Positions 16,116-46,812 of a stretch of DNA of 64,000 nt are shown here, piece after piece. This DNA is from Candidatus Saccharimonadota bacterium (lineage in GTDB: Bacteria; Patescibacteriota; Saccharimonadia; Saccharimonadales; Saccharimonadaceae), in assembly GCA_024697865.1 (NCBI GenBank), contig JAILSC010000019.1, forward strand, positions 23,526 to 87,525, in the 5' to 3' direction. Each line of letters opens with the position of its first letter. Position 1 is the stretch's first letter. A model generated the notes under the pieces. That model had not been told where the DNA came from, searched no databases, and was given only the letters and a program-made list of their open reading frames with translations. The position numbers were made by a program, and so were the translations under genes.

Positions 16116-16233
16116 TGGGGTGGGATAGCGGGATCGAACCGCCGTTTGCCCCTTGGGACGCTTCGGCGGTTCCAGCCGCAATACGCCACGCTGAAACCAT
16201 TGTGTGGGGTGGGATAGCGGGATCGAACCGCCG
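16116..16233. repeat. 29-bp direct repeat of the tRNA-His 3' end separated by a 60-bp insert (core family 2)
   Basis: TGGGGTGGGATAGCGGGATCGAACCGCCG at 16116-16144 and 16205-16233. Confidence 0.9.
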
Positions 16234-16282
16234 ACCTTCGGGACCACAATCCGACGCTCTAACCATCTGAGCTAATCCCACC
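16205..16282 (-). tRNA. tRNA-His(GTG)
   Basis: Cloverleaf; GTG anticodon; encoded G-1 and C73; CCA. Confidence 0.95.
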
Positions 16283-16312
16283 AGATAAAGCACTCCCCCA
16301 TTATATCATATC

Positions 16313-16714
16313 CTATCGCGAAATACCAGGATTCCGTCGCGCTGGCGGTGGAGTCATTTGTCTAGACGATGCCATTTGGTCATTACTAACATCACCACGA
16401 CCAATACTTCCTGCTTCGCCCCTTCTACTCTCACCGAATCTCTCCCTGATTGCCGCTCGTTGATCAGTGTCACGCGTTGCGTCGTAACTCTTAATTTTGG
16501 CGCCTACGTTGCCCAAGGCATCGTTTACTACTCTGGAATCCTTATATCCTCTTACCGTAGTCCGATTTGTCTCAACTCTTTGCCTCTCCGCAAAACTCTG
16601 CGTCGAAGCCGCTCCCATCTTTCCAGCGCCTTGAGCCTCTGCATAGGCCGATGAATGCAACACGTCCTTGCTTTTATCTTTCATCAATCTAGCTAAGAAC
16701 GGGTTCTTTTCCAT
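16313..16714 (-). CDS. Hypothetical protein
   Basis: 133-aa ORF in an operon-like run with SD AGGAG. Confidence 0.65.
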   Translation of the reverse strand: MEKNPFLARLMKDKSKDVLHSSAYAEAQGAGKMGAASTQSFAERQRVETNRTTVRGYKDSRVVNDALGNVGAKIKSYDATRDTDQRAAIRERFGESRRGEAGSIGRGDVSNDQMASSRQMTPPPARRNPGISR

Positions 16715-16722
16715 TTAACTCC

Positions 16723-17337
16723 TTATTTAGGCAAAAGCAAAAACGCCACCGTCCCTGCTGCTGCCCCTAATATTATTGTTAAAATAATCGCAATAACCAT
16801 TCCTGCATGGGCTTGTTTCTCTGGCTTTTCAATGATAGTTACCGGCTCTTCAGGCTTTGCTTCTTTTACCTCTGGCTTCTTCTCGGGATATACATTTTTT
16901 GCCGATAGCGGGCGTTTAACCACTTTTTCCTGATTCACAAAAGGAGTTTTTGGCGGTTGATAAATCGTTTTCGGGGCTTCTTTTGGTTTGGACTTTTCCA
17001 CTGAGTTTTCCACCGATTTAGCAGGTTTGGCGCTCTTCATACCGATCTTTTGCGCTTTTGCCGCAGCTATCCCAGTTCTACCAGTCGTAAAATGCGCTGC
17101 CCGACTTAAAGGCCGTTTTGGGACATCTGATCTTACAAAACGCGTATTTAAATTCTCTACCGCTCCTAATTTTGGCTTATCCTCACTAGCAAATCCCACC
17201 TTATTCGTAGTTTTAATCTCGGCCTTAACTTGAGGCTTGACGGTTTTTACGGTTTTGACGGTTTTTTCTGACGCTACTCTCTTGGTAGTTTTAATTTGTG
17301 GCCTTGTCGGCACAAAATCCATGTATTGCTTTTTCAT
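16723..17337 (-). CDS. Hypothetical Lys/Pro-rich protein with a C-terminal TM anchor
   Basis: Overlaps the tpiA stop; C-terminal hydrophobic helix. Confidence 0.7.
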   Translation of the reverse strand: MKKQYMDFVPTRPQIKTTKRVASEKTVKTVKTVKPQVKAEIKTTNKVGFASEDKPKLGAVENLNTRFVRSDVPKRPLSRAAHFTTGRTGIAAAKAQKIGMKSAKPAKSVENSVEKSKPKEAPKTIYQPPKTPFVNQEKVVKRPLSAKNVYPEKKPEVKEAKPEEPVTIIEKPEKQAHAGMVIAIILTIILGAAAGTVAFLLLPK

Positions 17338-18104
17338 TCTTTCACTCTTTTAGCCACCTCTATTATATCAGTAAATTCACTCAAAATCAAACTTGCGCCC
17401 CCAATCAGCAGCCCGTTTACCCCTGGCACCGTTAAATATGCTCCCGCATTAGAAGAGCTCACGCTCCCACCAAACAATACTGGCACCGCTTTAGCCGACT
17501 CCGCCCCGTAAATATTCGTCAAAACCTCTCGAATTATCTTCACTGCCTCTGCAATCTCATCAGGACCAGCCAATTTTGCCCCCTTTACCGAAGAAATCGC
17601 CCACACCGGTTCATAGGCTATCATCACTTTATCGATATCGTCGTCCGCCACCTCCGACAATCCGCCAGTTAGCTGATCTCGAATCACGTCCGCTGTCTCA
17701 CCAAAAGCTCGTTCACTTTCCGTCTCGCCAATACATAGAATTGGTCGGATTTTATTCCGAATTGCTGCCGCTATCTTTTTAGCAATCATTTTATCGTTTT
17801 CGCCTAAAATATACCGTCGCTCCGAATGTCCCACAATTGCATAATCGACCAATCCTCTCAGTTGCGAAAAAGAAACTTCTCCCGTAAACGCTCCGTAGTC
17901 TCGGTAAAACGCATTCTGCGCACACAACTTCATCTTATGACGGTCTATTTGCAAAGACAACGGTTGCAAAGCAATGGCTGATGGCGCTACCACCACTTCT
18001 ATACCTCTGTAATTTGATGTTTTTCTCAGTAATTTATGAAGATAGATAGAAGCTTCTCCGACTGTAAAATTTAGCTTCCAATTGCCCACGATATAAGTTT
18101 TCAT
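17334..18104 (-). CDS. tpiA: Triosephosphate isomerase
   Basis: VGNWKLN, GAFTGEVS, VGHSERR, AYEPVWAI, GLLIGGASL. Confidence 0.98.
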   Translation of the reverse strand: MKTYIVGNWKLNFTVGEASIYLHKLLRKTSNYRGIEVVVAPSAIALQPLSLQIDRHKMKLCAQNAFYRDYGAFTGEVSFSQLRGLVDYAIVGHSERRYILGENDKMIAKKIAAAIRNKIRPILCIGETESERAFGETADVIRDQLTGGLSEVADDDIDKVMIAYEPVWAISSVKGAKLAGPDEIAEAVKIIREVLTNIYGAESAKAVPVLFGGSVSSSNAGAYLTVPGVNGLLIGGASLILSEFTDIIEVAKRVKE

Positions 18105-18137
18105 AGAATTATTATAACATGGTATAATCGAAGTATT

Positions 18138-18908
18138 ATGAAAAAAGTTTTAGCATTCGACATAGACCAAACCTTAAACATAGCCAAAACTCCTATCGGC
18201 GACGAAATCGCTGACTTATTGATTGGCTGTTTGGATCACTTTGAAATCTGCCCTATCTCTGGCCAAAAATTCGACCAATTTTTAATTCAGATTGTCAATC
18301 GCCTGCAAGATCGCGGAGTTAAGCCTTCTCAACTCGCTCATCTTCACCTCTTCGTAGCTCAAGGTACTCAATATTATCGCTTTAACACCGAGAAAAACGA
18401 TTGGGAGCAAGTTTACAATTACCCCTTAACCGATGAACAGGTCGCCAAAATCACCGAGACAATGGAAGGCGCCGCTAAAGAACTCGGTTTCTGGGAAGAA
18501 GACAAATTACAGGCCGGCGACGAAATCATCGAGAACCGCCTCTCGCAAGTGACTTTCTCTGCCCTCGGCCAGCACGCCGGCACCGAAGAAAAATATGCCT
18601 GGGATCCAGACTGTAAAAAACGTGAACAAATCGTCGCTCGCTGCAAAGAGCTCGCCCCCGAATTTGATTACGAAATTGGTGGCACCACCTCAATTAACGC
18701 TATCACTCCTGGCATGAATAAAGAATTCGGCATGACTCACATGTTAGAGGAACTCAAAGTCGAAAAATCCGACATTCTTTACTTTGGCGACATGACTCAG
18801 CCTGGTGGTAACGACTACCCAGTTGTCCAAATGGGCATTGACACAATTACCGTGCGCAACCACGAAGACACTGCTTTCGCTCTTCGCGGCATTCTCGGTA
18901 TTCTCTAA
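18138..18908 (+). CDS. HAD-IIB hydrolase, phosphomannomutase (eukaryotic PMM)-like
   Basis: FDIDQTL, IENR..QVTFSALGQ, IGGTTSI, FGDM..PGGNDYP. Confidence 0.85.
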   Translation: MKKVLAFDIDQTLNIAKTPIGDEIADLLIGCLDHFEICPISGQKFDQFLIQIVNRLQDRGVKPSQLAHLHLFVAQGTQYYRFNTEKNDWEQVYNYPLTDEQVAKITETMEGAAKELGFWEEDKLQAGDEIIENRLSQVTFSALGQHAGTEEKYAWDPDCKKREQIVARCKELAPEFDYEIGGTTSINAITPGMNKEFGMTHMLEELKVEKSDILYFGDMTQPGGNDYPVVQMGIDTITVRNHEDTAFALRGILGIL

Positions 18909-18988
18909 TTCATTTACGATTATCCTCAAACCCATCATAATATGCTATAATATGCTTAAGCTAATTTAATTTTGAAAGGTGATACATA

Positions 18989-19729
18989 ATGGATAATAAT
19001 CAAATATCGCAAACCCCAAACCCAGAGCCGGTATTAGAGCCTACGCCGAACCCGATACCAGAACCAACTCCGGAACCAACTCCAGAGCCGACTCCGGAAC
19101 CAACTCCGAAACCCATTCCTACTACTCCGCCCCAAAAGTCCGCCAAAAAACTTACTATCGCAGTAGTCATCTGTCTTATTTTATCAGCGGTTGGCATAGG
19201 CTTAGGTATCTATAACATTATCCAACACAATAATCTTGCAAATTCTTTCGATACCGCAAACATTACTAATGGCACCCAGAATAATTCAGATCAGTCCACT
19301 AACGCTTTTTCAGGCCAAACTACTAGCGCCAACAGTGTAGAGTACAAATGTACTCCTCCTACCAGCACAGACGATATCCTCAGCATCAACATTCAAAGTA
19401 GCCCCGAAGCCAGGTTCCTCATTACTCCTAACCCCGGCGAAATTGATTTCATTAATTACACCACCGATGAAACCGGTGAAAAAGTCGAGTCCAGCACCAT
19501 GGCAACTACTGACACCTCCGAAATCGTCAACTATGCCTATCAAAATACTCTTAACAATTTGGGCGATCCCGACTACGATCAGATCTATTCCACCGGCCCC
19601 GACACTCTTTGGTATATCAGCCTCCAAAGCAACACCAACAACAGTGAATGTATGGTCATCGGCCAAGATAACCCTCCTGCCTGGTTCACTACTCTTGTCG
19701 ACATGCTTGAAGCTAAAAGGAATAGTTAA
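18989..19729 (+). CDS. Hypothetical single-pass membrane protein with an N-terminal (PEPT)n repeat
   Basis: PEPTPEPTPEPTP repeat encoded at about 19020-19120, one TM helix, soluble C-terminal domain. Confidence 0.7.
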   Translation: MDNNQISQTPNPEPVLEPTPNPIPEPTPEPTPEPTPEPTPKPIPTTPPQKSAKKLTIAVVICLILSAVGIGLGIYNIIQHNNLANSFDTANITNGTQNNSDQSTNAFSGQTTSANSVEYKCTPPTSTDDILSINIQSSPEARFLITPNPGEIDFINYTTDETGEKVESSTMATTDTSEIVNYAYQNTLNNLGDPDYDQIYSTGPDTLWYISLQSNTNNSECMVIGQDNPPAWFTTLVDMLEAKRNS

Positions 19730-19732
19730 TTT

Positions 19733-21547
19733 ATGAACATCCTTATCGTGGGCAACATTCTTAAGGATGTCTATCTAAACCTTGACTCTCGTACCGAGAA
19801 ATTCGAAACCGACAAGAACGAGACCAAATGGCTAGATCTAGCCTTTAACGCCTCCGAACATCACTTTTTTCATCGTGAATCCAGCTATGGTGGAGCTGCA
19901 GTTACTTTAGAAGTTTTACAAAAACTCGGCCTAGATGCGGCCATATCCAACTCACACCTTAGTTTTCAACACGAAAATAATCTTAATAACCTTACCACTG
20001 CTTATCGTTATATTCTTATTGCCGATGAAGGAGTCACCTATCTCGCCCCCAGTAAATTCACTACCGCCACCTTCAACGCCCCTAATTTTCCAGTCGATTA
20101 TCTTTATCTAGATCGTTCCGCCGAAATCACCGCCACTACTGCTGGTCAAATCACAAATTTCCTCAAAAACTCCCCTAGCACTAAATTAATCATTTATGTT
20201 CGTAATTTTCATAATCATCAGCTCAATCAACTCCTCCCTCAGGCGGAACTAATCTTTACTGAAACTTCTAATGCTCCTGAATTACAGAACCTCAACCCCG
20301 CCAAAATCGTCTATCTCTCTGACAATAAATTAACCTACGCCAACATCGCTGAGCCCATCTCGGCCAATCGCACCAACGTCCTCACTCATCTTTCTCTTTA
20401 TTCTATCGTTTCTGCCACCATTTTGGGGAGCTTCATTCTTGGCTACTCAGTAGAAGATAGCCTCAAGCTCGCTCGCATCAATTTAGAAAATTCCAAGCTC
20501 AACTCCGTGCTTACTCTCACTGAGCTTCAAGAATTAGCCACTCATACCATCATAAAGAACAGTCTAGAATTAATCGCTAGAAACCTCGTTTTACATCCCA
20601 AAGGCATTCTTGCCGCTGACGAATCTGGCGGCAGTATTCATAAAAAATTTGCTAGTCTAAATATCCCAGACACCTATGACAATCGTCGTGACTATCGTAA
20701 TATCTTTTTTACTACTCCAGGCCTCGAACAACATGTCAACGGCGTCATCCTTTTTGACGAAACCGCTCGCCAGCAAGCCGATAATGGCCAAAATTTCGTA
20801 GATTTTCTCACTGGTAAGCGCATTATTCCTGGCATTAAAGTCGATCAAGGACTCGAAAAATTCCAAGCCTCCGAAGAAACTTACACTAAGGGCCTAGTTG
20901 GCTTAGAAAAACGTCTTGCAGAGTATTATCAAATGGGCCTACGTTTTGCCAAGTGGCGCGCCGCTTTCGAAATTCGCACCAACGATAATGGCGATATCCT
21001 CACCCCTACCGATTACGCTATTCACGAGAATTGCCAAATCCTCGCCGAATACGCTAAAGCCTGCCAAACAGCCGGGCTCGTCCCCATCGTCGAACCAGAG
21101 CTAGTTTACAATGGTAATTATTCTATCGAGCAATCCGCCGTCACTACTGCTAAAATTCTAGATGCTCTCTTTGCCGAATTGAACAATCAAGATATCAATC
21201 TCAAAGCCTGCATTCTCAAAGTCAATATGGTTCTCGCTGGCAAACAGCAAGGGAATCAATCTACCCCAGAAGAAGTTGGTGAAAAAACTGCCGAAATTCT
21301 CAAAAACCACGTCCCCGCAGAATTAGCTGGCATAGTATTCCTCTCTGGTGGCCAAACTCCCGAGCAGGCCACCGACAATCTTGCTGCCATCATTAAACAC
21401 GGTCCTTATCCTTGGCCTGTCACCTTTTCTTTTGCTCGTGCCCTCCAAGACCCCGCACTCTTCACTTGGGCAGGAGACAACAATAACGCCGAAAAAGCCC
21501 GCCAAGCTTTCCTTGACAGGCTTATCGCTAATACTAAAGTATTGTAA
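19733..21547 (+). CDS. Fusion: degenerate PfkB/ribokinase-like domain plus class I fructose-bisphosphate aldolase
   Basis: C-terminal half: KGILAADES, GVILFDET, PGIKVD.G, FAKWRA, VPIVEPE, FLSGGQ, TFSFARALQ. N-terminal half: VGN...D.Y and GG.A pattern of PfkB. Confidence 0.85.
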   Translation: MNILIVGNILKDVYLNLDSRTEKFETDKNETKWLDLAFNASEHHFFHRESSYGGAAVTLEVLQKLGLDAAISNSHLSFQHENNLNNLTTAYRYILIADEGVTYLAPSKFTTATFNAPNFPVDYLYLDRSAEITATTAGQITNFLKNSPSTKLIIYVRNFHNHQLNQLLPQAELIFTETSNAPELQNLNPAKIVYLSDNKLTYANIAEPISANRTNVLTHLSLYSIVSATILGSFILGYSVEDSLKLARINLENSKLNSVLTLTELQELATHTIIKNSLELIARNLVLHPKGILAADESGGSIHKKFASLNIPDTYDNRRDYRNIFFTTPGLEQHVNGVILFDETARQQADNGQNFVDFLTGKRIIPGIKVDQGLEKFQASEETYTKGLVGLEKRLAEYYQMGLRFAKWRAAFEIRTNDNGDILTPTDYAIHENCQILAEYAKACQTAGLVPIVEPELVYNGNYSIEQSAVTTAKILDALFAELNNQDINLKACILKVNMVLAGKQQGNQSTPEEVGEKTAEILKNHVPAELAGIVFLSGGQTPEQATDNLAAIIKHGPYPWPVTFSFARALQDPALFTWAGDNNNAEKARQAFLDRLIANTKVL

Positions 21548-22252: not shown

Positions 22253-22301
22253 AAATAATTCCTTTCTAGTTCTTTTATTTTATCACTTTTCCCTATTTTT
22301 T

Positions 22302-22736
22302 TCAAGAAACGCGCTTTACCTTCACCATCGCCGGCCTAAGTACTTCCCCTTCATAATAATAGCCCGGTCTCAGAGTTTCAGCCACTACCTCCTGCTCGCC
22401 TTCACCTTCCGCCATTACCGCATCATGTATATCCGGATTAAATTCCGCCCCTTCTTTAGAGGCAATCTTGGCTAATTCCAATTCCTTCAAGGTTTTAGCT
22501 AAAGATTTTTCTAGCGGCTTCAATTCCGCATAACTATCTATCGCTCGATCTAAATCGTCTAATAGCGGTAATACTTTAGAAATCGTGGCAAATTTTACCG
22601 CTTTTTTCTCTTGAGTTTTTTGTAATTCTATTTGCTTCCGAAAATTTTCAAAATCTGCCCGTGTCCGCTGTAAATCCGCAGTTAATTCTGCTATTTTTGC
22701 TTCTGTTTCTGGCGTGTTCGTAGCTTTCTCCTTCAT
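22302..22736 (-). CDS. grpE: Nucleotide exchange factor GrpE
   Basis: R..ADFENFRK, LLDDLDRA, FNPDIHDAV, GY...GEVLRPAMVKV. Confidence 0.96.
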   Translation of the reverse strand: MKEKATNTPETEAKIAELTADLQRTRADFENFRKQIELQKTQEKKAVKFATISKVLPLLDDLDRAIDSYAELKPLEKSLAKTLKELELAKIASKEGAEFNPDIHDAVMAEGEGEQEVVAETLRPGYYYEGEVLRPAMVKVKRVS

Positions 22737-22745
22737 TAATCCTCC

Positions 22746-23507
22746 TCATAAAATATCTTCTAACATTTGTCCTGCATGTCGCACTAGTGCCATCACTCGC
22801 GCATAATTCTGTCGCGTTGGTCCTAATACGCCAATATAACTTTGGTCTGAAAACGGTGATTTAAAGCGTGAAATAATCAATGATACTTCTGAATTTTTAC
22901 CGATTGGATTCTCGTGTCCAATAAAAATATTCAAAGCTTCACCGGGCGCCGCTTCCCTTAGCCAAGGCTCTAGATTATCCAATAATTTTGCTACCGCCTG
23001 CACTCTTCGAGTATCGCCAAATTCTGGCTGAGTAAATAATCTAGCCATCCCCGACAGATATAATTGGCCATCTATTGTAGCCAAACCTAAATTGCCAGTC
23101 AATTCCACTAAAGCATCCACTGCTCCCCTAATTGCGGCATCCGCTCGCGACTGCGAATTTACTCGCACCTCTAGTGCGTGTAATCCGCGATTCAATCTAT
23201 TATCTGCTCTCGCTTCTGGCATTTGAGCTACATATGCTGCATCCATGCCATAATCTCGCCCACCCTCCTTCACTTCTAAATGGTTGACGTAATATCGGTA
23301 GCCAGCGTCTGTTGGTACTCGCCCCGCCGAAGTATGCGGCTGAGCAATTAGTCCCATTGCTTCTAGTCTAGCCATTTCCGCTCGTATCGTCGCCGGCGAC
23401 ACATGAAAAAGCTTAGCCATCGTCACGCTACCTACTGGCGATGCCGTCTCTGCATATTCCTCTATAATTTGACAAAGTATTTCTTCTTGCCGTGGCGTAA
23501 TTTCCAT
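22746..23507 (-). CDS. hrcA: Heat-inducible transcription repressor HrcA (short form)
   Basis: IIEEY.ETASPVGS, SPATIRAEMA.LE..G...QPHTSAGRVPTD.GYRYYV, GVLGPTRQNY. Confidence 0.95.
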   Translation of the reverse strand: MEITPRQEEILCQIIEEYAETASPVGSVTMAKLFHVSPATIRAEMARLEAMGLIAQPHTSAGRVPTDAGYRYYVNHLEVKEGGRDYGMDAAYVAQMPEARADNRLNRGLHALEVRVNSQSRADAAIRGAVDALVELTGNLGLATIDGQLYLSGMARLFTQPEFGDTRRVQAVAKLLDNLEPWLREAAPGEALNIFIGHENPIGKNSEVSLIISRFKSPFSDQSYIGVLGPTRQNYARVMALVRHAGQMLEDIL

Positions 23508-23524
23508 ATCTTAATTATACAAAA

Positions 23525-23551
23525 TTAGCACTAAAAACGCAAGAGTGCTAA
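23525..23551. promoter_or_regulatory. CIRCE operator upstream of hrcA-grpE
   Basis: TTAGCACTA-N9-GAGTGCTAA, one mismatch to the consensus. Confidence 0.92.
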
Positions 23552-23591
23552 TTTTGTATCTGCTTAAATAAAACTGTGTTATTATCATATT

Positions 23592-24209: not shown

Positions 24210-25656
24210 TCTTGATTTTCTTTCCTATTTTCTTGATTTCGTCTCTAAACTCCCATCCTAGATAAATCAAGCCCACACCCAGCACCCCCAATACCGCATA
24301 TAGTGCAATGAACGCTGTATTTTCATCGTAATTTTCTGGCGTCAAACCATAATCTGCACCTTTATTTTCTGTAATTCTCTTACATCGATTGGTCTCCGGA
24401 TTCAAGTAATATCCTTCTTTACAGGTTTTTTCTTTCGTATCGGCCATTTTCCTACATCGCCCCGTCAAAATATTCAAATAATATCCTTCCTGGCATATTT
24501 TCGCACTAACATTAGTCACTTTAACACAATTTCCTGTCACTTCATTTATCACTTTCCCCGCTTCGCAGGTCTTAAATTCCTGATAATTATTTGGTGCTCC
24601 TGGCGTTGGGGCGTAGGTAGTCTTCCAAATTTTATTGCCACTCTCATTATATCCTAACCACGCATAGGCAGCCCCCTTTCTTTGTCCATTCGGATATTCC
24701 ATCGTATCCACTACCTCATCATTCACATCTATCAGTTCTAGCCTATTTGCGTTTGTTGGATTTTTAGTCAGTCTAAATCCCACTGGATAATATGCATGAT
24801 AACCATCCGGTTTCACAACTCCCGAAAGTAGATATTTCTTATTTTTGTATCGCACCTTGCAGCCATCCAGATCCACCGCTCCAGTCCCCGTATTATGAAA
24901 TTCCACAAATTGTTCCGCCTTGTCAGTTTCATAATAACTTAGGATCTCCGAAAACTGCATTTCACGACATTTTGGCATCGCTCCTACTTCCATTTCATTA
25001 GAATCATCTTCCTTTACCTCTACATAATAATTTTTAGCATCATAACTTGGCTCATAAATGAATTCATGAGTAAATTCTCCTGTCTCTAAATTACGTACTA
25101 AAGTAGTCGGTTTGGCCGAATCAAAAGCCTTATAACATCCCTCCTTGCCAGTCCAACATACTTCATCTAAAACCTCCCCATCTATTATCAAAGCAATTTT
25201 TGCACTCATCGCCAAAGTCTTGCTATAAGCTAAGTTGGCTAGTTCAGCTCCAGGTGAACTAGCCAACTTGAGGAGGAGAGTCTCGCCAGTCATTTGGCTA
25301 TGCTCGGGAAACTCACGTAGAATCGAGGTATTCCCGCTTGAATTAGTATAGCTGATAGCCATTCCAGCGAGCAAAATCGGTGCGTCGGAGTTTCCAGTAC
25401 GGGCAATTTCAATCATTTCTCCGACATTATTTATCCCGCCAACCTTATAACCAGGGTTAACGGCTCTTATATATAATTCAGGCAATTCTTCGACTTCGTC
25501 ATTCAATTCATCGCCTAGTCCATCGTCCGATTTCTCTTCCGCTTCAGCATACGCGTCTAAGTTGTTTACCGCGCCCACTAAAGCCCCGATTGCTGGCCAC
25601 ACTCCACTGACCATCAACCCAAAACCAAGCATCAATATCATTATTTTTTTCTTCAT
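24199..25656 (-). CDS. Secreted protein with lamin-tail-like domains, Cys-rich repeats and a C-terminal TM helix
   Basis: Signal peptide; FSEIL...EQFVEFHNTG...VDLDG; repeated CKEGYYLNPETNRC-type motifs. Confidence 0.7.
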   Translation of the reverse strand: MKKKIMILMLGFGLMVSGVWPAIGALVGAVNNLDAYAEAEEKSDDGLGDELNDEVEELPELYIRAVNPGYKVGGINNVGEMIEIARTGNSDAPILLAGMAISYTNSSGNTSILREFPEHSQMTGETLLLKLASSPGAELANLAYSKTLAMSAKIALIIDGEVLDEVCWTGKEGCYKAFDSAKPTTLVRNLETGEFTHEFIYEPSYDAKNYYVEVKEDDSNEMEVGAMPKCREMQFSEILSYYETDKAEQFVEFHNTGTGAVDLDGCKVRYKNKKYLLSGVVKPDGYHAYYPVGFRLTKNPTNANRLELIDVNDEVVDTMEYPNGQRKGAAYAWLGYNESGNKIWKTTYAPTPGAPNNYQEFKTCEAGKVINEVTGNCVKVTNVSAKICQEGYYLNILTGRCRKMADTKEKTCKEGYYLNPETNRCKRITENKGADYGLTPENYDENTAFIALYAVLGVLGVGLIYLGWEFRDEIKKIGKKIKINR

Positions 25657-26656: not shown

Positions 26657-26658
26657 AG

Positions 26659-28052: not shown

Positions 28053-28129
28053 CGCGGGGTAGAGCAGTCCGGTAGCTCGTTTGGCTCATAACCAAAAGGT
28101 CGCTGGTTCAAATCCAGCCCCCGCAACCA
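28053..28129 (+). tRNA. Initiator tRNA-fMet(CAT)
   Basis: C1:A72 mismatch, A11-T24 pair, CAT anticodon, CCA. Confidence 0.92.
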
Positions 28130-31649: not shown

Positions 31650-31726
31650 GGGGATGTAGCTCAGCTGGTTAGAGCATGCGTCTTATACACGCAGGGTCCT
31701 AGGTTCGAGTCCTAGCATCCCTACCA
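31650..31726 (+). tRNA. tRNA with TAT anticodon (nominally Ile-UAU) on a Val-like body
   Basis: Cloverleaf; anticodon arm TGCGT-CTTATAC-ACGCA; CCA. Confidence 0.88.
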
Positions 31727-36311: not shown

Positions 36312-36386
36312 TGGTAGGGCCGGCTGGAATCGAACCAGCATCGTAGACTTAGAGGGTCTATGTCCTATCCGTTGAACGACGGCCCC
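36312..36386 (-). tRNA. tRNA-Arg(TCT)
   Basis: Cloverleaf; TAGAC-CCTCTAA-GTCTA; A20; CCA. Confidence 0.88.
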
Positions 36387-37252: not shown

Positions 37253-37260
37253 GACACCTA

Positions 37261-38883: not shown

Positions 38884-38917
38884 ACCATAATTATAGCATA
38901 AGTGTTATAATATGGTT

Positions 38918-41679: not shown

Positions 41680-43312
41680 TACTTTTCAGGAATTTAGTAA
41701 ATAGTGGGTGCACCGACAGCGGTCGTGATTTAAATTCCGGATGCGCTTGTGTCGCTACAAAGAATTTACACTTAGGTGCTTCGACGAATTCTACTAGTTT
41801 TCCATTTGGCGAAGTCCCCGACACGATCAAACCGCCTTTTTCTATTTCTGGCAAAAACTTCTGGTTCACCTCATAGCGATGACGATGCCGCTCCACCGTC
41901 CGTACATCTCCATTTTTCAAAACCTCCGTTCCGTCAATATAATGTTCTTTCTTTAAAGCCTCCACATAAGCCTCGGCTGTCCCCGTTCCTTTTTTCAATA
42001 CTGCCTCATAATCACCCAGCCGCATTGTTCCGCCAGTCGATTCTTTTCCTTTTTGGCCTTCCATAATATAAATCACGTTATTGTCATCTTTTTCGCTGGC
42101 CCCAAACTCTTCTGAGTTCGCTTTCTTGACTCCTCCAAGTCTTGCCGCCGCAATACAAGCCGTTTGCATGCCTAAGCAAAGTCCCAAATATGGCTTATCA
42201 TTCTCTAACGCATACGTAGCAGCTTTAATTTTACCTTCTACGCCTCGTGTGCCAAACCCACCCGGCACTACAATTCCGTCCACATTATCTAGATCTTTTT
42301 TGGTTACTTTTTCTGCATTCAGCCATTTAATCTCTAGATTTACTTCCGCCCAAGCCGCTGCCGCCTTCAAAGCCTCCGTCACGCACATATAAGTATCGTC
42401 ATTTCCGACATACTTTGCTACCAACCCCACCTTTATAGTCTTATCATGTTTAGCTGCTCGTCTCTTCGAAAACTTTTTCCATTCTCGCATATCTGGTTCC
42501 GTTTCATCATCCACAAAGTCATTTAGAATCGGTAATACTCCACTTTTCAACACGTTAAACGGGACATCATACACACTATCGATATCTGGCAAATTTAATA
42601 CTGCTTCTCCCGGAATGCCTGAAAAAGCTGCAATCTTTTCGCAAATTGCTCTCGGGCATGGTTCTTCTGTTCGTACACAAACGATATCCGGAATAATCCC
42701 GAAACCTCTTAGATCTTTCAACGCATTTTGCGCCGGTTTAGTTTTCAATTCGTTCGAAGTATGAATAAATGGCACGTACACTACCGAGACATACAGACAA
42801 TTTCGTCGCCCCACCTTGTTAGCAAATAATCGAATCGCCTCGACAAACGGCAAACCTTCATAATCGCCTATTGTTCCTCCAATTTCTACAATGTGAATAT
42901 CACTATCTTCAGAAGCCTTCTCGATCTTCTCGCAGACTAGTCCAGTAAAGTGCGGGACTAACTGCACCGTCTTACCATGAAATCCACCCGACCGTTCTCT
43001 TTCAATCAATTCTTTATAAATTGACCCCGACAAAGTAATTGAATATTTACTAGTCTCAAAATCCAAAAATCTCTCATAGTGCCCAAGGTCAAGATCGGTT
43101 TCCACTCCATCGTGCGTCACATAACATTCACCGTGCTCTACTGGATTTAAAAGCCCCGCATCCACATTCAGATACGGGTCACATTTTTGCATCGTCACCT
43201 TAAAGCCCTTAGCTTTTAAGATTGCCCCCATAGATGCAGCAGTAATTCCTTTGCCTACACCTGACAATACTCCCCCCGTCACAAAGATATATTTACATTT
43301 TTTATTTTTCAT
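41666..43312 (-). CDS. pyrG: CTP synthase
   Basis: GGVLSGVGKG, DPYLNVD, EIGGTIGD, KTKPAQ, GLCLGMQ, RHRHRYE, QAHPE; ATG 43312 follows SD GGAGG. Confidence 0.98.
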   Translation of the reverse strand: MKNKKCKYIFVTGGVLSGVGKGITAASMGAILKAKGFKVTMQKCDPYLNVDAGLLNPVEHGECYVTHDGVETDLDLGHYERFLDFETSKYSITLSGSIYKELIERERSGGFHGKTVQLVPHFTGLVCEKIEKASEDSDIHIVEIGGTIGDYEGLPFVEAIRLFANKVGRRNCLYVSVVYVPFIHTSNELKTKPAQNALKDLRGFGIIPDIVCVRTEEPCPRAICEKIAAFSGIPGEAVLNLPDIDSVYDVPFNVLKSGVLPILNDFVDDETEPDMREWKKFSKRRAAKHDKTIKVGLVAKYVGNDDTYMCVTEALKAAAAWAEVNLEIKWLNAEKVTKKDLDNVDGIVVPGGFGTRGVEGKIKAATYALENDKPYLGLCLGMQTACIAAARLGGVKKANSEEFGASEKDDNNVIYIMEGQKGKESTGGTMRLGDYEAVLKKGTGTAEAYVEALKKEHYIDGTEVLKNGDVRTVERHRHRYEVNQKFLPEIEKGGLIVSGTSPNGKLVEFVEAPKCKFFVATQAHPEFKSRPLSVHPLFTKFLKSIKYY

Positions 43313-43479
43313 TTTTTCGGGCACCTCCTCCGCCCACCAGTTATGTTTATGACCTATTTATATCCATTTTACCACAAAAAACACAATCATAAACATAAAA
43401 AATGGCGAATAACAGGATATTCATCCTAGTTCTTCTCTTCAGATTACCAAATCCAAAGCAAGCTTTGGATTTACTAACC

Positions 43480-43576
43480 TGGCGGAAAGGACAGGATTCG
43501 CACCGAAGGTCCGAATCCCCAACTAAAAAAGTCTACTGGAGACGACGGATTAACTTGGCGGAAAGGACAGGATTCG
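43480..43576. repeat. 21-bp direct repeat of the tRNA-Ser 3' end separated by a 55-bp insert (core family 3)
   Basis: TGGCGGAAAGGACAGGATTCG at 43480-43500 and 43556-43576. Confidence 0.9.
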
Positions 43577-43641
43577 AACCTGCGGACGTTTCCGTCTCTG
43601 GTTTTCAAGACCAGTGCCTTCAACCACTCGGCCACCTTTCC
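43556..43641 (-). tRNA. tRNA-Ser(TGA)
   Basis: Cloverleaf with long variable arm; CTGGT-CTTGAAA-ACCAG; G73; CCA. Confidence 0.95.
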
Positions 43642-43687
43642 ATTTTCTATTATACCATAATTCCCTAAAATATGTTATAATATCTCT

Positions 43688-43792
43688 ATGGCAAGAAAAA
43701 TTAAGATGAAACCGGTTAGTAAACAAAACCGCAACAATAATCACAAACACAGCGACAAACGTCAACATCCGCGTTTAAAGAATGGTCGCTAA
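43688..43792 (+). CDS. Candidate 34-aa highly basic protein MARKIKMKPVSKQNRNNNHKHSDKRQHPRLKNGR
   Basis: ATG 6 nt after TGTTATAAT, the same geometry as confirmed genes here; fills the gap up to the ftsA stop. Confidence 0.6.
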   Translation: MARKIKMKPVSKQNRNNNHKHSDKRQHPRLKNGR

Positions 43793-43794
43793 AC

Positions 43795-45039
43795 TTAAAA
43801 CTTCGAGAAAATCCGCTTCAATAAGCCGGATTTTTTCTCACCCTTATTTTTATTGCTCAACTTAAAACCTTTTTTGGCTGCTGGAGCCGCATAACTAGCA
43901 TCCTCTGCCGCCAACATCGCCAGTCCTACTGCTGTAGCAAATTCAGGTTTTTGTACAGCCTCCGCTACACCATTTAATCCAGATGGTTTACCGATCTTTA
44001 CTGCTGCTTCGAGAATTTTCTTTGCAAATAGTTCAATATCACGCATCTTCGCACCACCGCCCACTAAGATAACTCCCTCCGGTAATCTCTGGTCGTATTT
44101 TGCCGCCTTCAACTTCTTGCGTACTTCTTCGAAAATTTCTGAAAGTCTAGCTTTAACTACCTCTTCCACTTCCTTTCGGTCAAAGGCTCGTTCATTATTT
44201 TTACCATTACCCACCTTAATCGCTAAACTTTTTTCCGTATCAAAATCACCCGTAATAAAACGCGTTTTAATCTCTTCTGCTAATTCTGGCTCGATAGCTA
44301 AAACTATCGCTAAGTCATTCGTAATATTATTCGACCCCGCCGGCACCACCCCTACATATTGCAAATCACCCTCCTCGTATACCGCCACTGACGTCGTTGC
44401 TGCCCCCATGTTTACTACTGCTACGCCATTTTCTCTTTGCCTGTCAGAAAGTACGGCTTTAGCTGCCGCCACTACTTCCGGCACCAGACGTTCCGCCTTT
44501 ACATCGGCCGTCATCGTAGCTCGCTTCAAATTTTCACAATTCGGCGAAAGCGCCGAAATCACACAAGCACGCATTTCTAAACGAGACCCTGCCATACCTA
44601 ATGGATTTTTAATTCCGCCTTGTCCATCCAAGGCATATTCCAAAGGTATCACGTCTAGTACATCTCGATTTGCCGGAATTCGCCCCGTCACTGCTACCCC
44701 CTCCACGCGGTCCAAATCCTCATCAACAATTTCATGGTCTGCCGCTCCCACCGCGATCATTCCTTCGGTATGAGTGGAAATCACCGTTGAACCATTAATT
44801 GACACATAAGCATTCCGTACATCGTAGCCCCCCATCCTTTCGGCATCCCCCAACATCTTGTCGATGGCCTCTGCTGGACCCGCCAAATTTGCCGGAATCC
44901 CCTTCCGCATCCCTGCTGATTTTCCTTCATTATATCCCACAATCGCAATTTCACCATCTTTATTAACCGTTGCAATCACAGCCCGCACATTCTCTGTCCC
45001 TACATCTAGTCCAGTTACGAAATTCTTATTTTCATCCAT
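43795..45039 (-). CDS. ftsA: Cell division protein FtsA
   Basis: GLDVGT..V.AVIA, VVNMGAATT, AGSNNITNDLA, GVILVGGGA. Confidence 0.95.
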   Translation of the reverse strand: MDENKNFVTGLDVGTENVRAVIATVNKDGEIAIVGYNEGKSAGMRKGIPANLAGPAEAIDKMLGDAERMGGYDVRNAYVSINGSTVISTHTEGMIAVGAADHEIVDEDLDRVEGVAVTGRIPANRDVLDVIPLEYALDGQGGIKNPLGMAGSRLEMRACVISALSPNCENLKRATMTADVKAERLVPEVVAAAKAVLSDRQRENGVAVVNMGAATTSVAVYEEGDLQYVGVVPAGSNNITNDLAIVLAIEPELAEEIKTRFITGDFDTEKSLAIKVGNGKNNERAFDRKEVEEVVKARLSEIFEEVRKKLKAAKYDQRLPEGVILVGGGAKMRDIELFAKKILEAAVKIGKPSGLNGVAEAVQKPEFATAVGLAMLAAEDASYAAPAAKKGFKLSNKNKGEKKSGLLKRIFSKF

Positions 45040-45056
45040 AAGCTTATTATATCACA

Positions 45057-45833
45057 TTAATCTGGCAAAGTTAAAACTTCGTATCCGTCGGCTGTTACCA
45101 ATATCGTATGTTCACAGTGGCAGCCAATCGAACCGTCTTTCATCTTCACGCTCCAACCGTCATCTTTATCTACATAATTCGCTGGCTTGCCTAAACATGA
45201 CATTGGCTCAATACAAATAGTATCTCCCTCTACTAGTTTATATCCTGTGCCCTTGCGTCCATAGTTCGGGACTTCCGGCGCCTGGTGCATTTTTTTATCA
45301 ATCCCGTGACCGATATAGTTTTCAATTACCCCCAAATGTCCTTTTCTTAAAACTTTCTCTACCGCATGACCAATATCGCCAATATGCGCCCCCGGTCTCA
45401 CTTGCTCAATTCCTTCCCACAATGACGATTCGGTTACCGAAATCATTTTTTTCACTGCCGGCGACCCGGTATCGCCCACTAACATCGTAAACGCTGCATC
45501 CACATAATAACCCTTGTAGGAAATCACTTCATCAAACGAAACTTTGTCTCCTTCTTCTAATACTTCGTCCGACGGTGCCCCATGCACTAGTTGATCATTA
45601 ATTGATATACAGATCGCTCCCGGAAAATCTTCATCTAAATCGTCATATGCCACCCCTGCTCCTCGTCGAACAATCTCTTTTCTCACCCAAGCATCGATCT
45701 CTTTTCCAGTCATTCCTGGCTCCACATATTCTTTCAAGTCTCTAAGTAGATTTCCCAAAATCTTCCCCCCTTCTCGCATTGCAACAATCTTCTTTGCCAA
45801 CTCTTCTGACGTGCTATTCTCTTTATTCACCAT
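45057..45833 (-). CDS. map: Methionine aminopeptidase type I
   Basis: CISIND..VHGAP, Y.GHGI...MH..P, EPM, HCEHTI; start could be 45833 or 45854. Confidence 0.95.
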   Translation of the reverse strand: MVNKENSTSEELAKKIVAMREGGKILGNLLRDLKEYVEPGMTGKEIDAWVRKEIVRRGAGVAYDDLDEDFPGAICISINDQLVHGAPSDEVLEEGDKVSFDEVISYKGYYVDAAFTMLVGDTGSPAVKKMISVTESSLWEGIEQVRPGAHIGDIGHAVEKVLRKGHLGVIENYIGHGIDKKMHQAPEVPNYGRKGTGYKLVEGDTICIEPMSCLGKPANYVDKDDGWSVKMKDGSIGCHCEHTILVTADGYEVLTLPD

Positions 45834-46416
45834 AACTTCGCTCGATTTCTCCACCGTTTACGTCTTCATTTTGTTCAATGGCCTCAGGATCTAATCGCTT
45901 TACAGCATCCACCAACCTATCCGTCACTTCGCCAACTTTACCTACGCCATCTACATGCACTACTTGTACTCCAGCTTCTTCAAACATTTTTACGATTGGT
46001 GGAATATTTTCCTCAAATGCTTTAAACCGACGTTCAATACTTGCTCGTTCTTTATCGTCATCCCGCCCCCTTAATTCCAATCTTTTCAGCAGCTCTTCTC
46101 TTGGCACGTCCAACATCGCCGCCCCATTTATCTTGTCTATCATGTTTTCTACTATGTATTTAGCCTGCGTCGCACTGCGTGGATATCCGTCCAAAATCAC
46201 TTCAAATCCTTCGTCCTCTGCTTTCTCGATCTGTCTATTCATTAAATTAATTACATCTTCATCGGGGATCAATTTTCCACTGTCGGTCAATTCCCTGTAT
46301 TCGCCAGTCTGTCGAATCACTTCTCCTACGGATAACCACCGCCAGCCAAAAATTTCTGCTAACGCTCGGCCCTGAGTTCCTTTGCCAGATCCTGCCAAAC
46401 CAAATAATATTATCAT
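45823..46416 (-). CDS. adk: Adenylate kinase (short, no zinc lid)
   Basis: FGLAGSGKGTQ, LDGYPR, RGRDDD; ATG 46416 after AGGAG. Confidence 0.85.
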   Translation of the reverse strand: MIILFGLAGSGKGTQGRALAEIFGWRWLSVGEVIRQTGEYRELTDSGKLIPDEDVINLMNRQIEKAEDEGFEVILDGYPRSATQAKYIVENMIDKINGAAMLDVPREELLKRLELRGRDDDKERASIERRFKAFEENIPPIVKMFEEAGVQVVHVDGVGKVGEVTDRLVDAVKRLDPEAIEQNEDVNGGEIERSYGE

Positions 46417-46470
46417 TTCTATCTCCTTTTTTCCATTATACCTCAAAAATATCCCCTCTCGGGGATATTT

Positions 46471-46689
46471 TTACCTAAGTCCTAGCTTGATTCGCTCGGT
46501 CTTCTCGGCTTTGCGTTTCTCGCGAATAATTGCCTTCAATCTACGTTCACGTTTTGAAATAGGTTTAGAAAATCGCATCTGTGATTTCTTCAAAGGCATC
46601 ATTCCGCTTTGCAAAACCTTTCGGTTAAAGCGTCGAATGATATTCTCATTCGCTTCCCCTTGATCTTTTCTTGTAACTTTTATAGCCAT
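46471..46689 (-). CDS. rpsU: 30S ribosomal protein S21
   Basis: E..ENIIRRFNRKV..SG......F.KP.SKRERR. Confidence 0.85.
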   Translation of the reverse strand: MAIKVTRKDQGEANENIIRRFNRKVLQSGMMPLKKSQMRFSKPISKRERRLKAIIREKRKAEKTERIKLGLR

Positions 46690-46735
46690 ATTCTCCACAT
46701 TATATCACACCTTGGCGTTTTCCGCAAGATGTTAA

Positions 46736-46812
46736 AACAAAAATGGCGGAACCGTTTGCCCCTTGGGACGCTCCGGTGGAGCCGTTTTTGTGCAACAAAA
46801 ATGGCGGAACCG
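46736..46812. repeat. 19-bp direct repeat of the tRNA-Asp 3' end plus trailer, separated by a 39-bp insert (core family 2)
   Basis: AACAAAAATGGCGGAACCG at 46736-46754 and 46794-46812. Confidence 0.88.

Follow-up and report, generated by a model that had tools for sequence, protein, structure and literature searches.

What kind of event could place the same short sequence behind two different tRNA genes, each time between two copies of that gene's own 3' end? In the window (the whole 64-kb stretch of Saccharibacteria DNA that was analysed), the 21-mer CCGTTTGCCCCTTGGGACGCT occurs downstream, in the tRNA sense, of intact minus-strand genes for tRNA-His and tRNA-Asp (Table 1). The initial annotation had described both copies of this sequence, the duplicated tRNA 3' ends around them, the differing breakpoints within the two tRNAs and the degenerate inverted copy of the target that follows the insert, and all of these observations hold. 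It did not mention a third exact copy of the internal 14-mer GCCCCTTGGGACGC, in a non-tRNA context.

Table 1. Units at tRNA genes and related elements in the window (X1, target segment; X', inverted copy; X2, direct copy; N, base adjoining the core).
Feature	Position	Strand	Description	Basis
tRNA-His(GTG)	16205-16281	-	Intact	ARAGORN; Rfam 58.7 bits
His X1	16205-16233	-	Final 29 nt of the tRNA, begins after T47 (AAGGT|CGGCGG)	Repeat search, sequence
His spacer/body	16178-16204	-	CACAATGGTTTCAGCGTGGCGTATTGC..., contains GGTTTCAGC...GCTGGAACC pairing	Sequence
His X'	16164-16177	-	GGCTGGAACCGCCG; 14 nt, 86% complementary, 9 nt perfect beside core	Repeat search, fold
His N and core	16145-16163	-	N is A; core AGCGTCCCAAGGGGCAAA	Sequence, fold
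His X2	16116-16144	-	Displaced direct copy of tRNA 3' end (T arm, acceptor 3' strand, CCA), 29 nt, 100% identical to X1	Repeat search
His 21-mer	16142-16162	+	CCGTTTGCCCCTTGGGACGCT	
tRNA-Asp(GTC)	46802-46878	-	Intact	ARAGORN; Rfam 69.9 bits
Asp X1	46794-46812	-	Last 11 nt of the tRNA and 8 nt of trailer, begins after T65 (CTCGT|CGGTTCC)	Repeat search, sequence
Asp loop and X'	46774-46793	-	2-3 nt loop and ACAAAAACGGCTCCACCG; imperfect (14/18), spans whole X1	Repeat search, fold
Asp inverted copy itself	46774-46791		18 nt, 78% complementary	
Asp N and core	46755-46773	-	N is G; core AGCGTCCCAAGGGGCAAA	Sequence
Asp X2	46736-46754	-	Direct copy of X1, 19 nt, 100%	Repeat search
Asp 21-mer	46752-46772	+	CCGTTTGCCCCTTGGGACGCT	
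Sister family 1 at tRNA-Gly	15952-16053	-		Repeat search, sequence, fold
Gly sister unit X1	16017-16053	-		
Gly sister unit X2	15952-15988			
Sister family 1 at tRNA-Ser	43481-43576	-	X1 43556-43576, X2 43481-43501	
33-nt double hairpin	63554-63586	-	TTGCCTTCGGCAA-TTC-GCGTCCCAAGGGGC-GAG, with the same apical 14-mer	Sequence, fold
Third 14-mer	63557-63570		GCCCCTTGGGACGC	
Host palindromic repeat	63492-63623		GC-rich, high copy number	

The 18-mer core was scanned against 185,579 species genomes, yielding 73 loci where approximately 17 chance hits were expected: 63 Saccharibacteria contigs (72 copies) and ten others. The ten matches outside Saccharibacteria look like chance hits, with an inverted run of 0-1 nt beside the core and no direct repeat. 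The Saccharibacteria copies number 74 with the two in the window; their inverted run beside the core is 1-14 nt long (commonest, 6 nt) and their direct repeat varies from about 5 to 60 nt (6-60 nt in 66 of 74), a hairpin-arm pattern far beyond chance. The flank tabulation that the initial annotation had proposed for such a search found target-matched arms at every one of the 74. All share the order target...T | X - spacer - X' - N - AGCGTCCCAAGGGGCAAA - X, in which X' repeats the start of X in inverted form, the final X is a direct copy, and the orientation of the core relative to X1 is constant. The base N is G in 60 copies and A in 11; the core is always followed by C-R(-G), and N always preceded by C-Y-G.

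Two hairpins make up the unit. In the locus-specific hairpin A, the target X itself (the functional 3' end at tRNA genes) forms the 5' arm and X' the 3' arm. Hairpin B is a conserved module of 18-19 nt, (N)AGC-GUCC-CAAG-GGGC-AAA. Predicted folds consist of the X'/X stem and the apical GUCC-CAAG-GGGC hairpin, which at His leaves GAGC-type and AAA flanks unpaired. The units form GC islands against a background of 44%. The structure can be read equally well as an X'-N-core insert with a target duplication of variable length, or as a duplication-free double hairpin at T|CR whose 5' arm replaces X. Only the loop module is conserved between copies; the arms differ target by target, and some are a perfect complement, over up to 14 nt, of unique T-stem sequence (Gly in L064, Pro in L057, Val in L042). 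The T-arm-type units carry a common 'body' and are target specific only in the 2-6 nt proximal to the junction; the His unit of the window has a body homologous to the GSTCCAG...TTGGAACC body that other species carry in their His, Pro, Thr and Arg units. The distal part of X' matches the trailer of X1 in five cases (L050, L031, L062, L069 and L070).

The target site follows a simple rule, which in tRNA sense reads (G/A)T|C(G/A)N, the bar marking the breakpoint. X always opens with C[G/A] (CGG 30, CAG 23, CGC 10, CAA 8, CGA 2, CAC 1), and among the 58 upstream copies of X without a preceding core, base -1 is T in 56 (the remaining two being one N and one G) and base -2 is G in 50. A tRNA gene lies on the same strand within 420 nt upstream for 55 copies, representing 16 isoacceptors, of which His (8 loci and the window), Leu-GAG (at least 9) and Pro-CGG (6) recur, with breakpoints 29, 26, 21 or 11 nt from the CCA end. 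Promoter -35 regions carry eight copies, at GT|CAAGAC, and 16S rRNA lies downstream of two of these. Because 16 isoacceptors and promoter -35 regions are hit at differing positions, it is a short sequence, not tRNA position, that sets the site. This strongly supports what the initial annotation had suggested for the choice of target, although the motif is the one given above and not CCG/CGG specifically: the CCG junction is present at both loci, where CCG on the plus strand is the CGG that opens the duplicated segment after T, but the start of X varies too much elsewhere for it to be a general rule. The G-rich strand is the core-sense strand in 50 of 64 loci, a bias confounded with gene orientation.

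Two units of a sister family are present at tRNA-Gly (hairpin GGGAGTCG-GACCTGCGGTG-CGACTCCC, breakpoint GGGTT|CGACTCC) and tRNA-Ser (hairpin GGATTCG-GACCTTCGGTG-CGAATCC, breakpoint AGGTT|CGAATCC). Some inserts in these genomes are longer, at 110-160 nt, and have tRNA repeats of 18-19 nt (L017, L023, L058, L059 and 43403-43480 of the window). The third copy of the 14-mer belongs to a 33-nt double hairpin nested at GT|CGCC, at the apex of a palindromic repeat that lies in frame within a Wzy_C-type ORF. This site has no target duplication and its borders are precise (T| and |CG); many metagenome copies are without exactly those 33 nt.

Alleles differing by one unit establish a gain/loss polymorphism. 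At Asp, 58 nt (46736-46793) are missing from an otherwise identical contig with 0 differences in 161 flanking nt, and the direct repeat is too short for a k-mer assembly artefact. A 65-nt unit is missing at Gly in another strain, in a contig with a novel junction, and 153 nt are missing at Ser in a 98.8%-identical strain; in another species, His and Gly are spaced by 8 nt. Comparison of syntenic tRNA loci, which the initial annotation had also recommended, identified a relative (L075) that is fully syntenic over up620-tRNA-Asp-rpsU-adk and has an empty site. Empty alleles may also arise by precise loss via the direct repeats, so the insertion event itself was not caught. The earlier proposal that the direct and the inverted target copy would both be products of insertion is compatible with the anatomy of every Saccharibacteria copy; X' at Asp is mismatched at 4 of 18 positions, although the two direct copies, and likewise the flanks of the empty allele, are identical.

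Units also occur in tandem. Stacked or mixed units with a second loop, GAACTTCGTAAA, are found in L049, L062, L072 and L073, and L037 contains arrays of up to four 90-nt units; in the stack of L018, hairpin A is internally perfect in each unit although X1, X2 and X3 differ. X2 has decayed in several lineages (L056, L045, L060, L012 and L015), sometimes together with the whole hairpin, which argues against a needed function. The Asp copy of the window is taken to be old because its inverted arm is imperfect while its direct repeats are perfect; it has CAAAAACGGC in common with the element of L050, the two differ in concert in X', X2 and the tRNA, and both look inherited. Vertical descent could therefore account for much of the distribution, true transpositions being few.

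The copies are probably (at roughly 0.55) a Saccharibacteria-specific, non-coding, non-autonomous double-hairpin insertion unit of about 40-90 nt with arms kept matched to the target. Such a unit would be joined at the (G/A)T|C(G/A) step, with X on both sides, so that the interrupted gene end would be regenerated and the displaced original end would remain as a decaying direct repeat. Movement or copying may occur in trans through a factor encoded elsewhere, or through replication template switching with another copy as donor. After insertion, hairpin-templated (quasipalindrome) correction and repeat homogenisation would hold the arms complementary and so make them look target derived. The arms may have arrived with the unit and then been corrected to the local sequence, instead of being newly made, because X' at Asp has mismatches, the hairpins of L018 are perfect unit by unit, and the T-arm-type units have a common body. 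The unit is presumably selfish or neutral and not needed for tRNA function. Against this reading stand the low copy number and the absence of a mobilising enzyme gene from the window, and it does not explain how arms matching a new tRNA could be acquired without killing the gene. The constant start at T|C(G/A) and the direct and inverted target copies at every hairpin may point to a so far undescribed route for moving or copying short DNA. A new mechanism, in which a T|CR-cutting factor installs the loop module and rebuilds the arms from the target by fold-back or target-primed synthesis, is possible but doubtful; if true, the unit would be 'self-fitting' to any gene end entered, with the interrupted tRNA or promoter regenerated.

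There may be no dedicated element at all. Sites that are highly transcribed and stall replication forks, among them tRNA genes and rRNA promoters, could give rise to small inverted triplications when replication switches template or synthesis folds back. The 18-nt loop would be imported from another locus by CYG / CRG microhomology, during that switch or a subsequent one, and quasipalindrome correction would then perfect the arms. The order X - X' - X is the DUP/INV/DUP order of described replication-error products (PMC13334657), the variable direct repeat is unlike a transposase stagger, and the targets are strongly transcribed; the trinucleotides that flank the core and N are usable as microhomology, and in L031 the switch point into X' falls on an A-run/T-run microhomology. 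No transposase, integrase or reverse transcriptase was found in the 64-kb window, where approximately 55 ORFs are housekeeping genes, nor any autonomous IS with matching ends. However, three or four coordinated switches, one of them to a distant locus, would be needed to produce a core of constant orientation, and CRG microhomology leaves the near-invariant T at -1 unexplained. The nested 33-nt copy has precise borders without triplication, and the core is not templated nearby, is missing at empty sites and is identical across loci in dozens of species, implying faithful propagation of a unit. An origin by replication error alone is considered unlikely.

It is more improbable that the unit is a functional signal of tRNA genes, whether a trailer hairpin for 3' end masking or processing, an insulator or stop for transcription ahead of the next gene, or a decoy attachment site, with the loop as a putative protein-binding site. 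Recurrence at the same tRNAs in many species would fit such a role, as would the co-variation at Asp, four Trp loci in which X2 is identical to the tRNA 3' end of the species itself, the G.T/U wobble that the prevalent G at N makes with the T at -1, and a core variant (L018 and L069) in which a change from G-C to G.U preserves the apical helix, though only on the tRNA-sense strand. Yet X2, sometimes with the whole hairpin, has decayed (L045, L056, L060, L012), the unit is missing in near-identical strains and syntenic relatives, promoter-type copies sit upstream of the promoter, and a normal terminator precedes the hairpin at Leu-type loci, so that co-transcription with the tRNA may fail. Nor are the hairpins canonical terminators: with a loop of 19 nt, they gave two weak partial matches to an intrinsic terminator at Asp and none at His or Gly. 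With the covariance models of Rfam 15, only tRNAs passed the threshold and nothing was found over the units even at E<=5, and no RNA contig covered the element. Least probable are decayed scars of integrase-mediated elements or prophages that use tRNA 3' ends, the core and X' being an attP arm beside the crossover and the rest having been deleted. Such integration characteristically leaves a direct repeat of the tRNA 3' end downstream of an intact gene, and the longer inserts would be compatible with it, but merely 39-60 nt, with no ORF and no integrase remnant, lie between the repeats at His and Asp. One core serves 16 isoacceptors and promoters, with T|CR breakpoints at four positions instead of a fixed att site; the exact 18-mer was not found in IMG/VR contigs, nor the His element in GenBank phages; and tandem identical 90-nt units (L037) fit poorly.

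The closest known kinds are mitochondrial GC-cluster/double-hairpin elements, Rickettsia palindromic elements and small inverted triplications. Rickettsia palindromic elements, REP/BIME, Correia and other MITEs are non-coding, hairpin forming, lineage specific and non-autonomous. The Saccharibacteria unit likewise occurs between genes or in frame in ORFs (the palindromic host of the 33-nt hairpin, and the LigA insert of L064), but differs in its low copy number (1-3 exact cores per assembly) and in arms derived from or matched to the target. A MITE in the strict sense was rejected: in place of conserved terminal inverted repeats the arms differ at every target and the loop alone is common, and in place of a fixed-length target duplication there are direct repeats of 5-7 nt up to 60 nt.

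The distal repeats of E. coli tyrT each contain the last 19 nt of tRNA-Tyr. Like these and the tyrosine-integrase elements of tRNA genes, the unit duplicates a tRNA 3' end, leaves the gene intact and may be repeated in tandem downstream; unlike tRNA-targeting integrative elements it has no integrase, measures tens of nucleotides instead of kilobases, brings one core to many tRNAs and adds an inverted copy. IS200/IS605-family single-strand transposons have PATE/REP derivatives. In the T|C register the unit resembles them in its two hairpins, its insertion 3' of a short fixed motif and its apparent precise loss; the 33-nt copy matches their duplication-free insertion, whereas the tRNA copies are equally readable as duplications. 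In contrast to this family, conservation is confined to the right hairpin, the left one being locus specific (the downstream target), neither the motif nor the hairpins are related to known members, and no Y1 transposase was seen in the window.

Small inverted triplications share the direct-inverted-direct order of a short local segment of variable length (PMC13334657). E. coli removes such DUP/INV/DUP products again by slippage (PMC13334657), and here, too, exactly one unit would be removable by slippage and hairpin arms would be perfected beside loops. The unit differs from them in the non-local conserved 18-nt insert at the inverted-to-direct junction, the strict choice of T|CR, the strict orientation and the recurrence over many loci and species. 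The mitochondrial elements comprise yeast GC clusters (GC42), the double-hairpin elements of Allomyces, the repetitive hairpin-forming elements of sponges and the GC-rich palindromes that flank tRNA genes in Neurospora; no enzyme is known to mobilise them. Like the Saccharibacteria unit they are short (30-100 nt), GC-rich (double) hairpins in an AT-richer compact genome, have a short target motif, are polymorphic for presence or absence, occur as tandem, merged or nested copies and are often associated with tRNA genes. In yeast GC42 the target motif is AG (PMC4478555). The Saccharibacteria unit differs in its T|CR target, in the regeneration of the gene end that it interrupts and in its bacterial host. 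Whereas the whole sequence of the mitochondrial elements is conserved, the Saccharibacteria unit conserves an 18-nt loop only and its main stem is the local target.

The 21-mer described in the initial annotation is present in the window at 16142-16162 and 46752-46772, downstream of tRNA-His and tRNA-Asp in tRNA sense. Within it lies a conserved 18-mer loop module, AGCGTCCCAAGGGGCAAA (the core), which defines family 2. With X1 as the functional gene end, X2 as its displaced direct copy, X' as the inverted copy of the start of X, and a slash at the breakpoint, the His unit reads ...AAGGT/CGGCGGTTCGATCCCGCTATCCCACCCCA, 32 nt, GAACCGCCG, A, AGCGTCCCAAGGGGCAAA, CGGCGGTTCGATCCCGCTATCCCACCCCA, and the Asp unit ...CTCGT/CGGTTCCGCCATTTTTGT, TGC, ACAAAAACGGCTCCACCG, G, AGCGTCCCAAGGGGCAAA, CGGTTCCGCCATTTTTGTT. 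Perfect direct repeats span 29 nt (His) and 19 nt (Asp); the inverted copy is perfect over 9 nt in His (86% over 14 nt) and 78% complementary over 18 nt in Asp. Seven tRNA genes lie within the window, and all four with a unit are on the minus strand, which is the G-rich strand; the G+C content of the window is 41-49%, its GC skew is strongly negative in every 4-kb bin (-0.11 to -0.30), and its words occur in ruminant gut metagenomes. The UAU anticodon of its tRNA-Ile is uncommon among bacteria. A promoter with perfect TTGACA-17-TATAAT elements and an extended TG follows immediately after the displaced tRNA-Gly copy and precedes a 302-aa ORF.

Coordinates of window features, units and their polymorphic segments
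Feature	Position	Strand	Description
truB	4821-5537		
GC-rich island in truB	5104-5184		
Promoter	15910-15938	minus	
Gly segment	15952-16016		65 nt, missing from empty allele
tRNA-Gly	16029-16103	minus	own 3' end duplicated downstream in tRNA sense
tRNA-His	16205-16281	minus	own 3' end duplicated downstream in tRNA sense; intact, Rfam 58.7 bits
hrcA-grpE	22302-23507		
Hairpin within ORF	25235-25300		TTGGCTAGTTCA-GCTCCAGG-TGAACTAGCCAA, 12 bp, perfect
tRNA-Met	28053-28129		ordinary terminator hairpin, no duplication
tRNA-Ile	31650-31726		anticodon TAT (UAU); ordinary terminator hairpin, no duplication
tRNA-Arg	36312-36386		ordinary terminator hairpin, no duplication
Ser segment	43403-43555		153 nt, entire composite insert, missing from empty allele
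tRNA-Ser	43556-43641	minus	own 3' end duplicated downstream in tRNA sense
Asp segment	46736-46793		58 nt, missing from empty allele
tRNA-Asp	46802-46878	minus	own 3' end duplicated downstream in tRNA sense; intact, Rfam 69.9 bits
Zeta-toxin family kinase ORF	55072-55878		
CIRCE-type inverted repeat	58262-58295		TTAGCACTC-N9-GAGTGCTA, upstream of dnaK
Wzy_C protein ORF	62745-63998	minus	O-antigen ligase-like membrane protein
GC-rich block	63492-63623		about 130 nt, about 75% G+C, nested hairpins
Double hairpin in block	63554-63586	minus	TTGCCTTCGGCAA-TTC-GCGTCCCAAGGGGC-GAG
Third exact copy of inner 14-mer	63557-63570		GCGTCCCAAGGGGC

Every bacterial and archaeal species, represented by one genome each, was scanned for exact matches to the 18-mer (596 Gb, in which about 17 chance matches are expected), giving 73 loci. 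Of these, 63 are contigs of Saccharibacteria (Nanosyncoccus, Nanosynbacter, TM7-G3, and bins of identical anatomy that are unnamed or mislabelled). The ten from unrelated phyla are chance hits with no repeat and complementarity of 0-1 nt. All 72 Saccharibacteria copies and the two window copies have the same layout, upstream...T, X, L, X', N, core, X, in which N is a single base, the spacer L ranges from a loop of 2-4 nt to a whole trailer with terminator, and X' is the reverse complement of the initial 5-18 nt of X. The arms are locus specific and can be perfectly complementary, over as many as 14 nt, to T-stem sequence unique to one tRNA, and their occurrence throughout the Saccharibacteria copies greatly extends what the initial annotation had noticed at two genes. 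Recurrence in dozens of independent assemblies rules out an assembly artefact. The core-sense strand is G-rich at 50 of 64 other loci, a count that is confounded with gene orientation and so uninformative on replication-strand bias.

The breakpoint follows a short rule, T/CR in tRNA sense (R being G or A). Among the 74 copies X begins with CGG (30), CAG (23), CGC (10), CAA (8), CGA (2) or CAC (1); outside arrays, the base before the upstream X is T in 56 of 58 cases (N and G in the other two), and G precedes that position in 50 of 58. Since N is mostly a purine (G 60, A 11, C 2, T 1), pairing or wobble with the -1 T is nearly always possible. Fifty-five copies lie at most 420 nt downstream of a same-strand tRNA, and most copies with no assigned tRNA are cut off by the end of the locus. 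Sixteen isoacceptors are hit: Leu-GAG, Leu-CAG, His, Pro-CGG, Thr-CGT, Thr-TGT, Asp, Trp, Met, Val-GAC, Val-TAC, Phe, Arg-GCG, Arg-CCG, Gly-GCC and Cys. The distance from breakpoint to CCA end is 29, 26, 21 or 11 nt, with T/CR every time, and within one tRNA type it varies by species with the location of T/CR (Met at loci L008, L046 and L058 of other genomes; Pro-CGG at L001, L011 and L057). Eight copies interrupt GT/CAAGAC, the opposite-strand -35 region (GTCTTG/ACA) of a divergent promoter, two of them upstream of 16S rRNA, and at L002 one copy abuts an antisense tRNA 5' end. The earlier proposal that the target is chosen by a short sequence rather than by tRNA position is thus borne out by T/CR at varied tRNA positions and at promoters. 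Its second part, that insertion creates both a direct and an inverted target copy, agrees with the finding of both copies at 74 of 74 sites, but the arms may instead be carried in and corrected afterwards.

Other loops occupy the same architecture. A second loop, GAACTTCGTAAA, takes the X-X'-loop-X position after tRNA-Thr and is stacked with 18-mer units in both orders (L049, L062, L072, L073), while the family 1 loop GACCTKCGGTG of the window Gly and Ser units has its breakpoint in the T loop (GGTT/CGA). Stacked and mixed units occur, as does amplification to four identical 90-nt repeats (L037, L049, L062, L072, L073); the resemblance of L037 to a CRISPR array was dismissed, its "spacers" being the identical 90-nt units. 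The insert after tRNA-Ser is a composite of a family 1 hairpin unit and an older piece, which ends in a degenerate third tRNA-end copy, ATCCTGTTATTCGCCA, and resembles (GAAGAA..TAGGATG) post-tRNA inserts of 110-160 nt at L017, L023, L058 and L059.

The inner 14-mer also occurs apart from tRNA genes. Its third window copy lies in a GC-rich block that is in frame within the Wzy_C protein ORF, immediately ahead of the Pfam domain. Contig depth over this block reaches up to 10,800 in rumen metagenomes, versus about 7 for its flanks, and the flanks are of many different kinds, which marks the block as a very high-copy repeat. In many of its metagenome copies exactly the double hairpin is missing; this hairpin sits at GT/CGCC with no target duplication. 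The 14-mer is also present in other GC-rich palindromic inserts (L064, L017, L024). At L064 (minus strand, about 860 from the reversed start) the insert falls within a NAD-dependent DNA ligase gene, in frame but on the opposite strand, and its imperfect inverted arms of about 35 nt include coding sequence. The truB island, where the Pfam TruB_N match splits into two, is a candidate for a further palindromic insert in frame. When the window was scanned generically for direct-inverted-direct 7-mers, 12 clusters appeared versus 3.2 expected; leaving aside the tRNA units and the CIRCE operator, none was like family 2. CIRCE-dnaK and hrcA-grpE constitute an ordinary heat-shock regulon.

Contigs of public runs placed on the window revealed alleles one exact unit apart. 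The Asp segment is missing from a contig with 161 identical flanking bases, and assembly collapse is excluded, since the assembler's word is longer than the 19-nt repeat. The Gly segment is missing from a contig whose junction is absent from the filled form, the Ser segment is missing in a strain 98.8% identical over 3.3 kb, and a contig from another species connects tRNA-His to tRNA-Gly via about 15 nt. Comparison with syntenic relatives, as the initial annotation had suggested, was made through adenylate kinase in metagenome contigs; one of seven loci was useful (L075), having the same gene order (620-aa protein, tRNA-Asp, rpsU, adk) and an empty Asp site composed of CCA, a T run and the rpsU promoter. 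These alleles establish the unit as a discrete and dispensable DNA segment; they fit either insertion or precise loss via the direct repeat, between which the data do not distinguish.

The Asp unit combines perfect direct repeats with an inverted arm that carries four mismatches; the arm's odd CAAAAACGGC and the upstream gene are shared with the Asp unit of L050, indicating inheritance of both units from a common ancestor, and between the two the tRNA, X' and X2 have changed together (T versus A, fourth base of X). At four Trp loci X2 equals the 3' end of the species' own tRNA despite differing tRNAs. Core-proximal X' tends to match X2 (for example position 8 at L015), and distal X' follows the X1 trailer (L050, L031, L062, L069, L070). 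A pooled count of the direct copy that X' follows ends in a tie (63 versus 59 informative positions), in part owing to mis-assignment of X1 in five loci, so that only locus-by-locus reading is informative. The X-L-X' hairpin is perfect in both of the stacked units at L018, although X1, X2 and X3 differ. T-arm units of different tRNAs have a common body, GSTCCAG...GAGTTGGGAAC, with only the final 2-6 nt before N target specific. (The perfect hairpin within a window ORF, which is followed by a third TTGGCTA copy, has a loop similar to the GSTCCAG motif.) Together these data fit a unit carried in with its arms and then corrected against neighbouring copies; arms made from the target at insertion are compatible with the same data. 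Two processes would carry out this correction: close to each loop, quasipalindrome repair with the hairpin as template, and, between direct repeats lying near one another, homogenisation.

With Rfam, only tRNAs and a 16S fragment were detected, whether at gathering score (window and eight loci) or at E<=5 (units), and no family matched the units. The His unit had no match among 50,697 phage records, nor did the exact 18-mer in IMG/VR. Pfam assigned housekeeping functions alone to about 55 window ORFs (among them recA, polA, dnaK, aspS, truB, rpoD, tpiA); the Zeta-toxin family kinase ORF adjoins a diacylglycerol-kinase-like ORF. A consensus scan gave no convincing match to a canonical terminator, and a degenerate second tRNA or tRNA-like fold between the copies was discarded for want of a 5' acceptor partner and of any Rfam or ARAGORN call. 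Judged from sequence, a hammerhead-like reading of GU/C with a G.U wobble appears untenable, the core having no CUGANGA, as does a group I-like reading, in which the predicted pairing polarity is opposite to that of the P1 helix.

We favour, with a probability of about 0.55, a non-autonomous double-hairpin insertion unit that chooses T/CR sites and whose arms are corrected afterwards; it would be mobilised in trans and would have no function of its own. The data directly show the anatomy, the site rule, the polymorphism, the stacking and the decay; movement in trans, arm correction and absence of function are inferred. Insertion can be described in two equivalent ways. Either X'-N-core, with or without extra spacer, would be inserted with a variable-length duplication of X, as favoured by the arrays that repeat a whole X plus trailer and by the variable repeat length; or a double-hairpin unit (hairpin A being X-L-X' and hairpin B the core) would be inserted at T/CR with no duplication, its 5' arm substituting for the gene end and the original end becoming X2, the description to which L018 and the third window copy lend weight.

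The main rival to the double-hairpin insertion unit, a purely replicative origin through a small inverted triplication and microhomology-guided copying of the loop from another locus (PMC13334657), is fairly unlikely. Retention of the hairpin for a selected function is less likely still: X2, and sometimes the hairpin too, decays in other lineages (L045, L056, L060, L012, L015). Three metatranscriptome contig sets that covered the tRNA and rpsU, and not the unit, are uninformative on transcription. Integrase scars are very improbable; against a classical att scar stand the presence of one core at 16 tRNAs and at promoters and a breakpoint set by a trinucleotide, and among window ORFs Pfam found no transposase, integrase or reverse transcriptase adjoining the units. 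That a truly new insertion mechanism underlies the units seems somewhat unlikely.

The Saccharibacteria, epibionts of ultra-small size, have reduced genomes in which few mobile elements are recognised. A mini-element able to invade essential tRNA genes and rRNA promoters while sparing them would offer this phylum a new way of changing its genome, and the gain or loss of units between near-identical strains would make them useful as a strain-typing marker. Were insertion to build the stem out of target sequence, the responsible enzyme or replication pathway would represent a new kind of sequence-adaptive DNA insertion. The presence of the apical module in very abundant in-frame GC-rich palindromic inserts in protein genes of rumen Saccharibacteria suggests that the tRNA copies may be the most readable cases of a broader process, which may shape coding and non-coding sequence alike. 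A limited search of the full-text literature yielded no prior description of the units, which does not prove that none exists. Nearest in kind are mobile elements of hairpin or double-hairpin form in the mitochondria of fungi and sponges (PMC4478555), among which GC-rich palindromes flank Neurospora tRNA genes (PMC4478555 and references therein), and the Rickettsia-type bacterial palindromic mini-elements. The units have in common with them their size, hairpin form, short target motif, polymorphism and lack of a known mobiliser, but differ in being conserved only in the loop, in having a stem that corresponds to local target sequence, and in regenerating the gene end that they interrupt.
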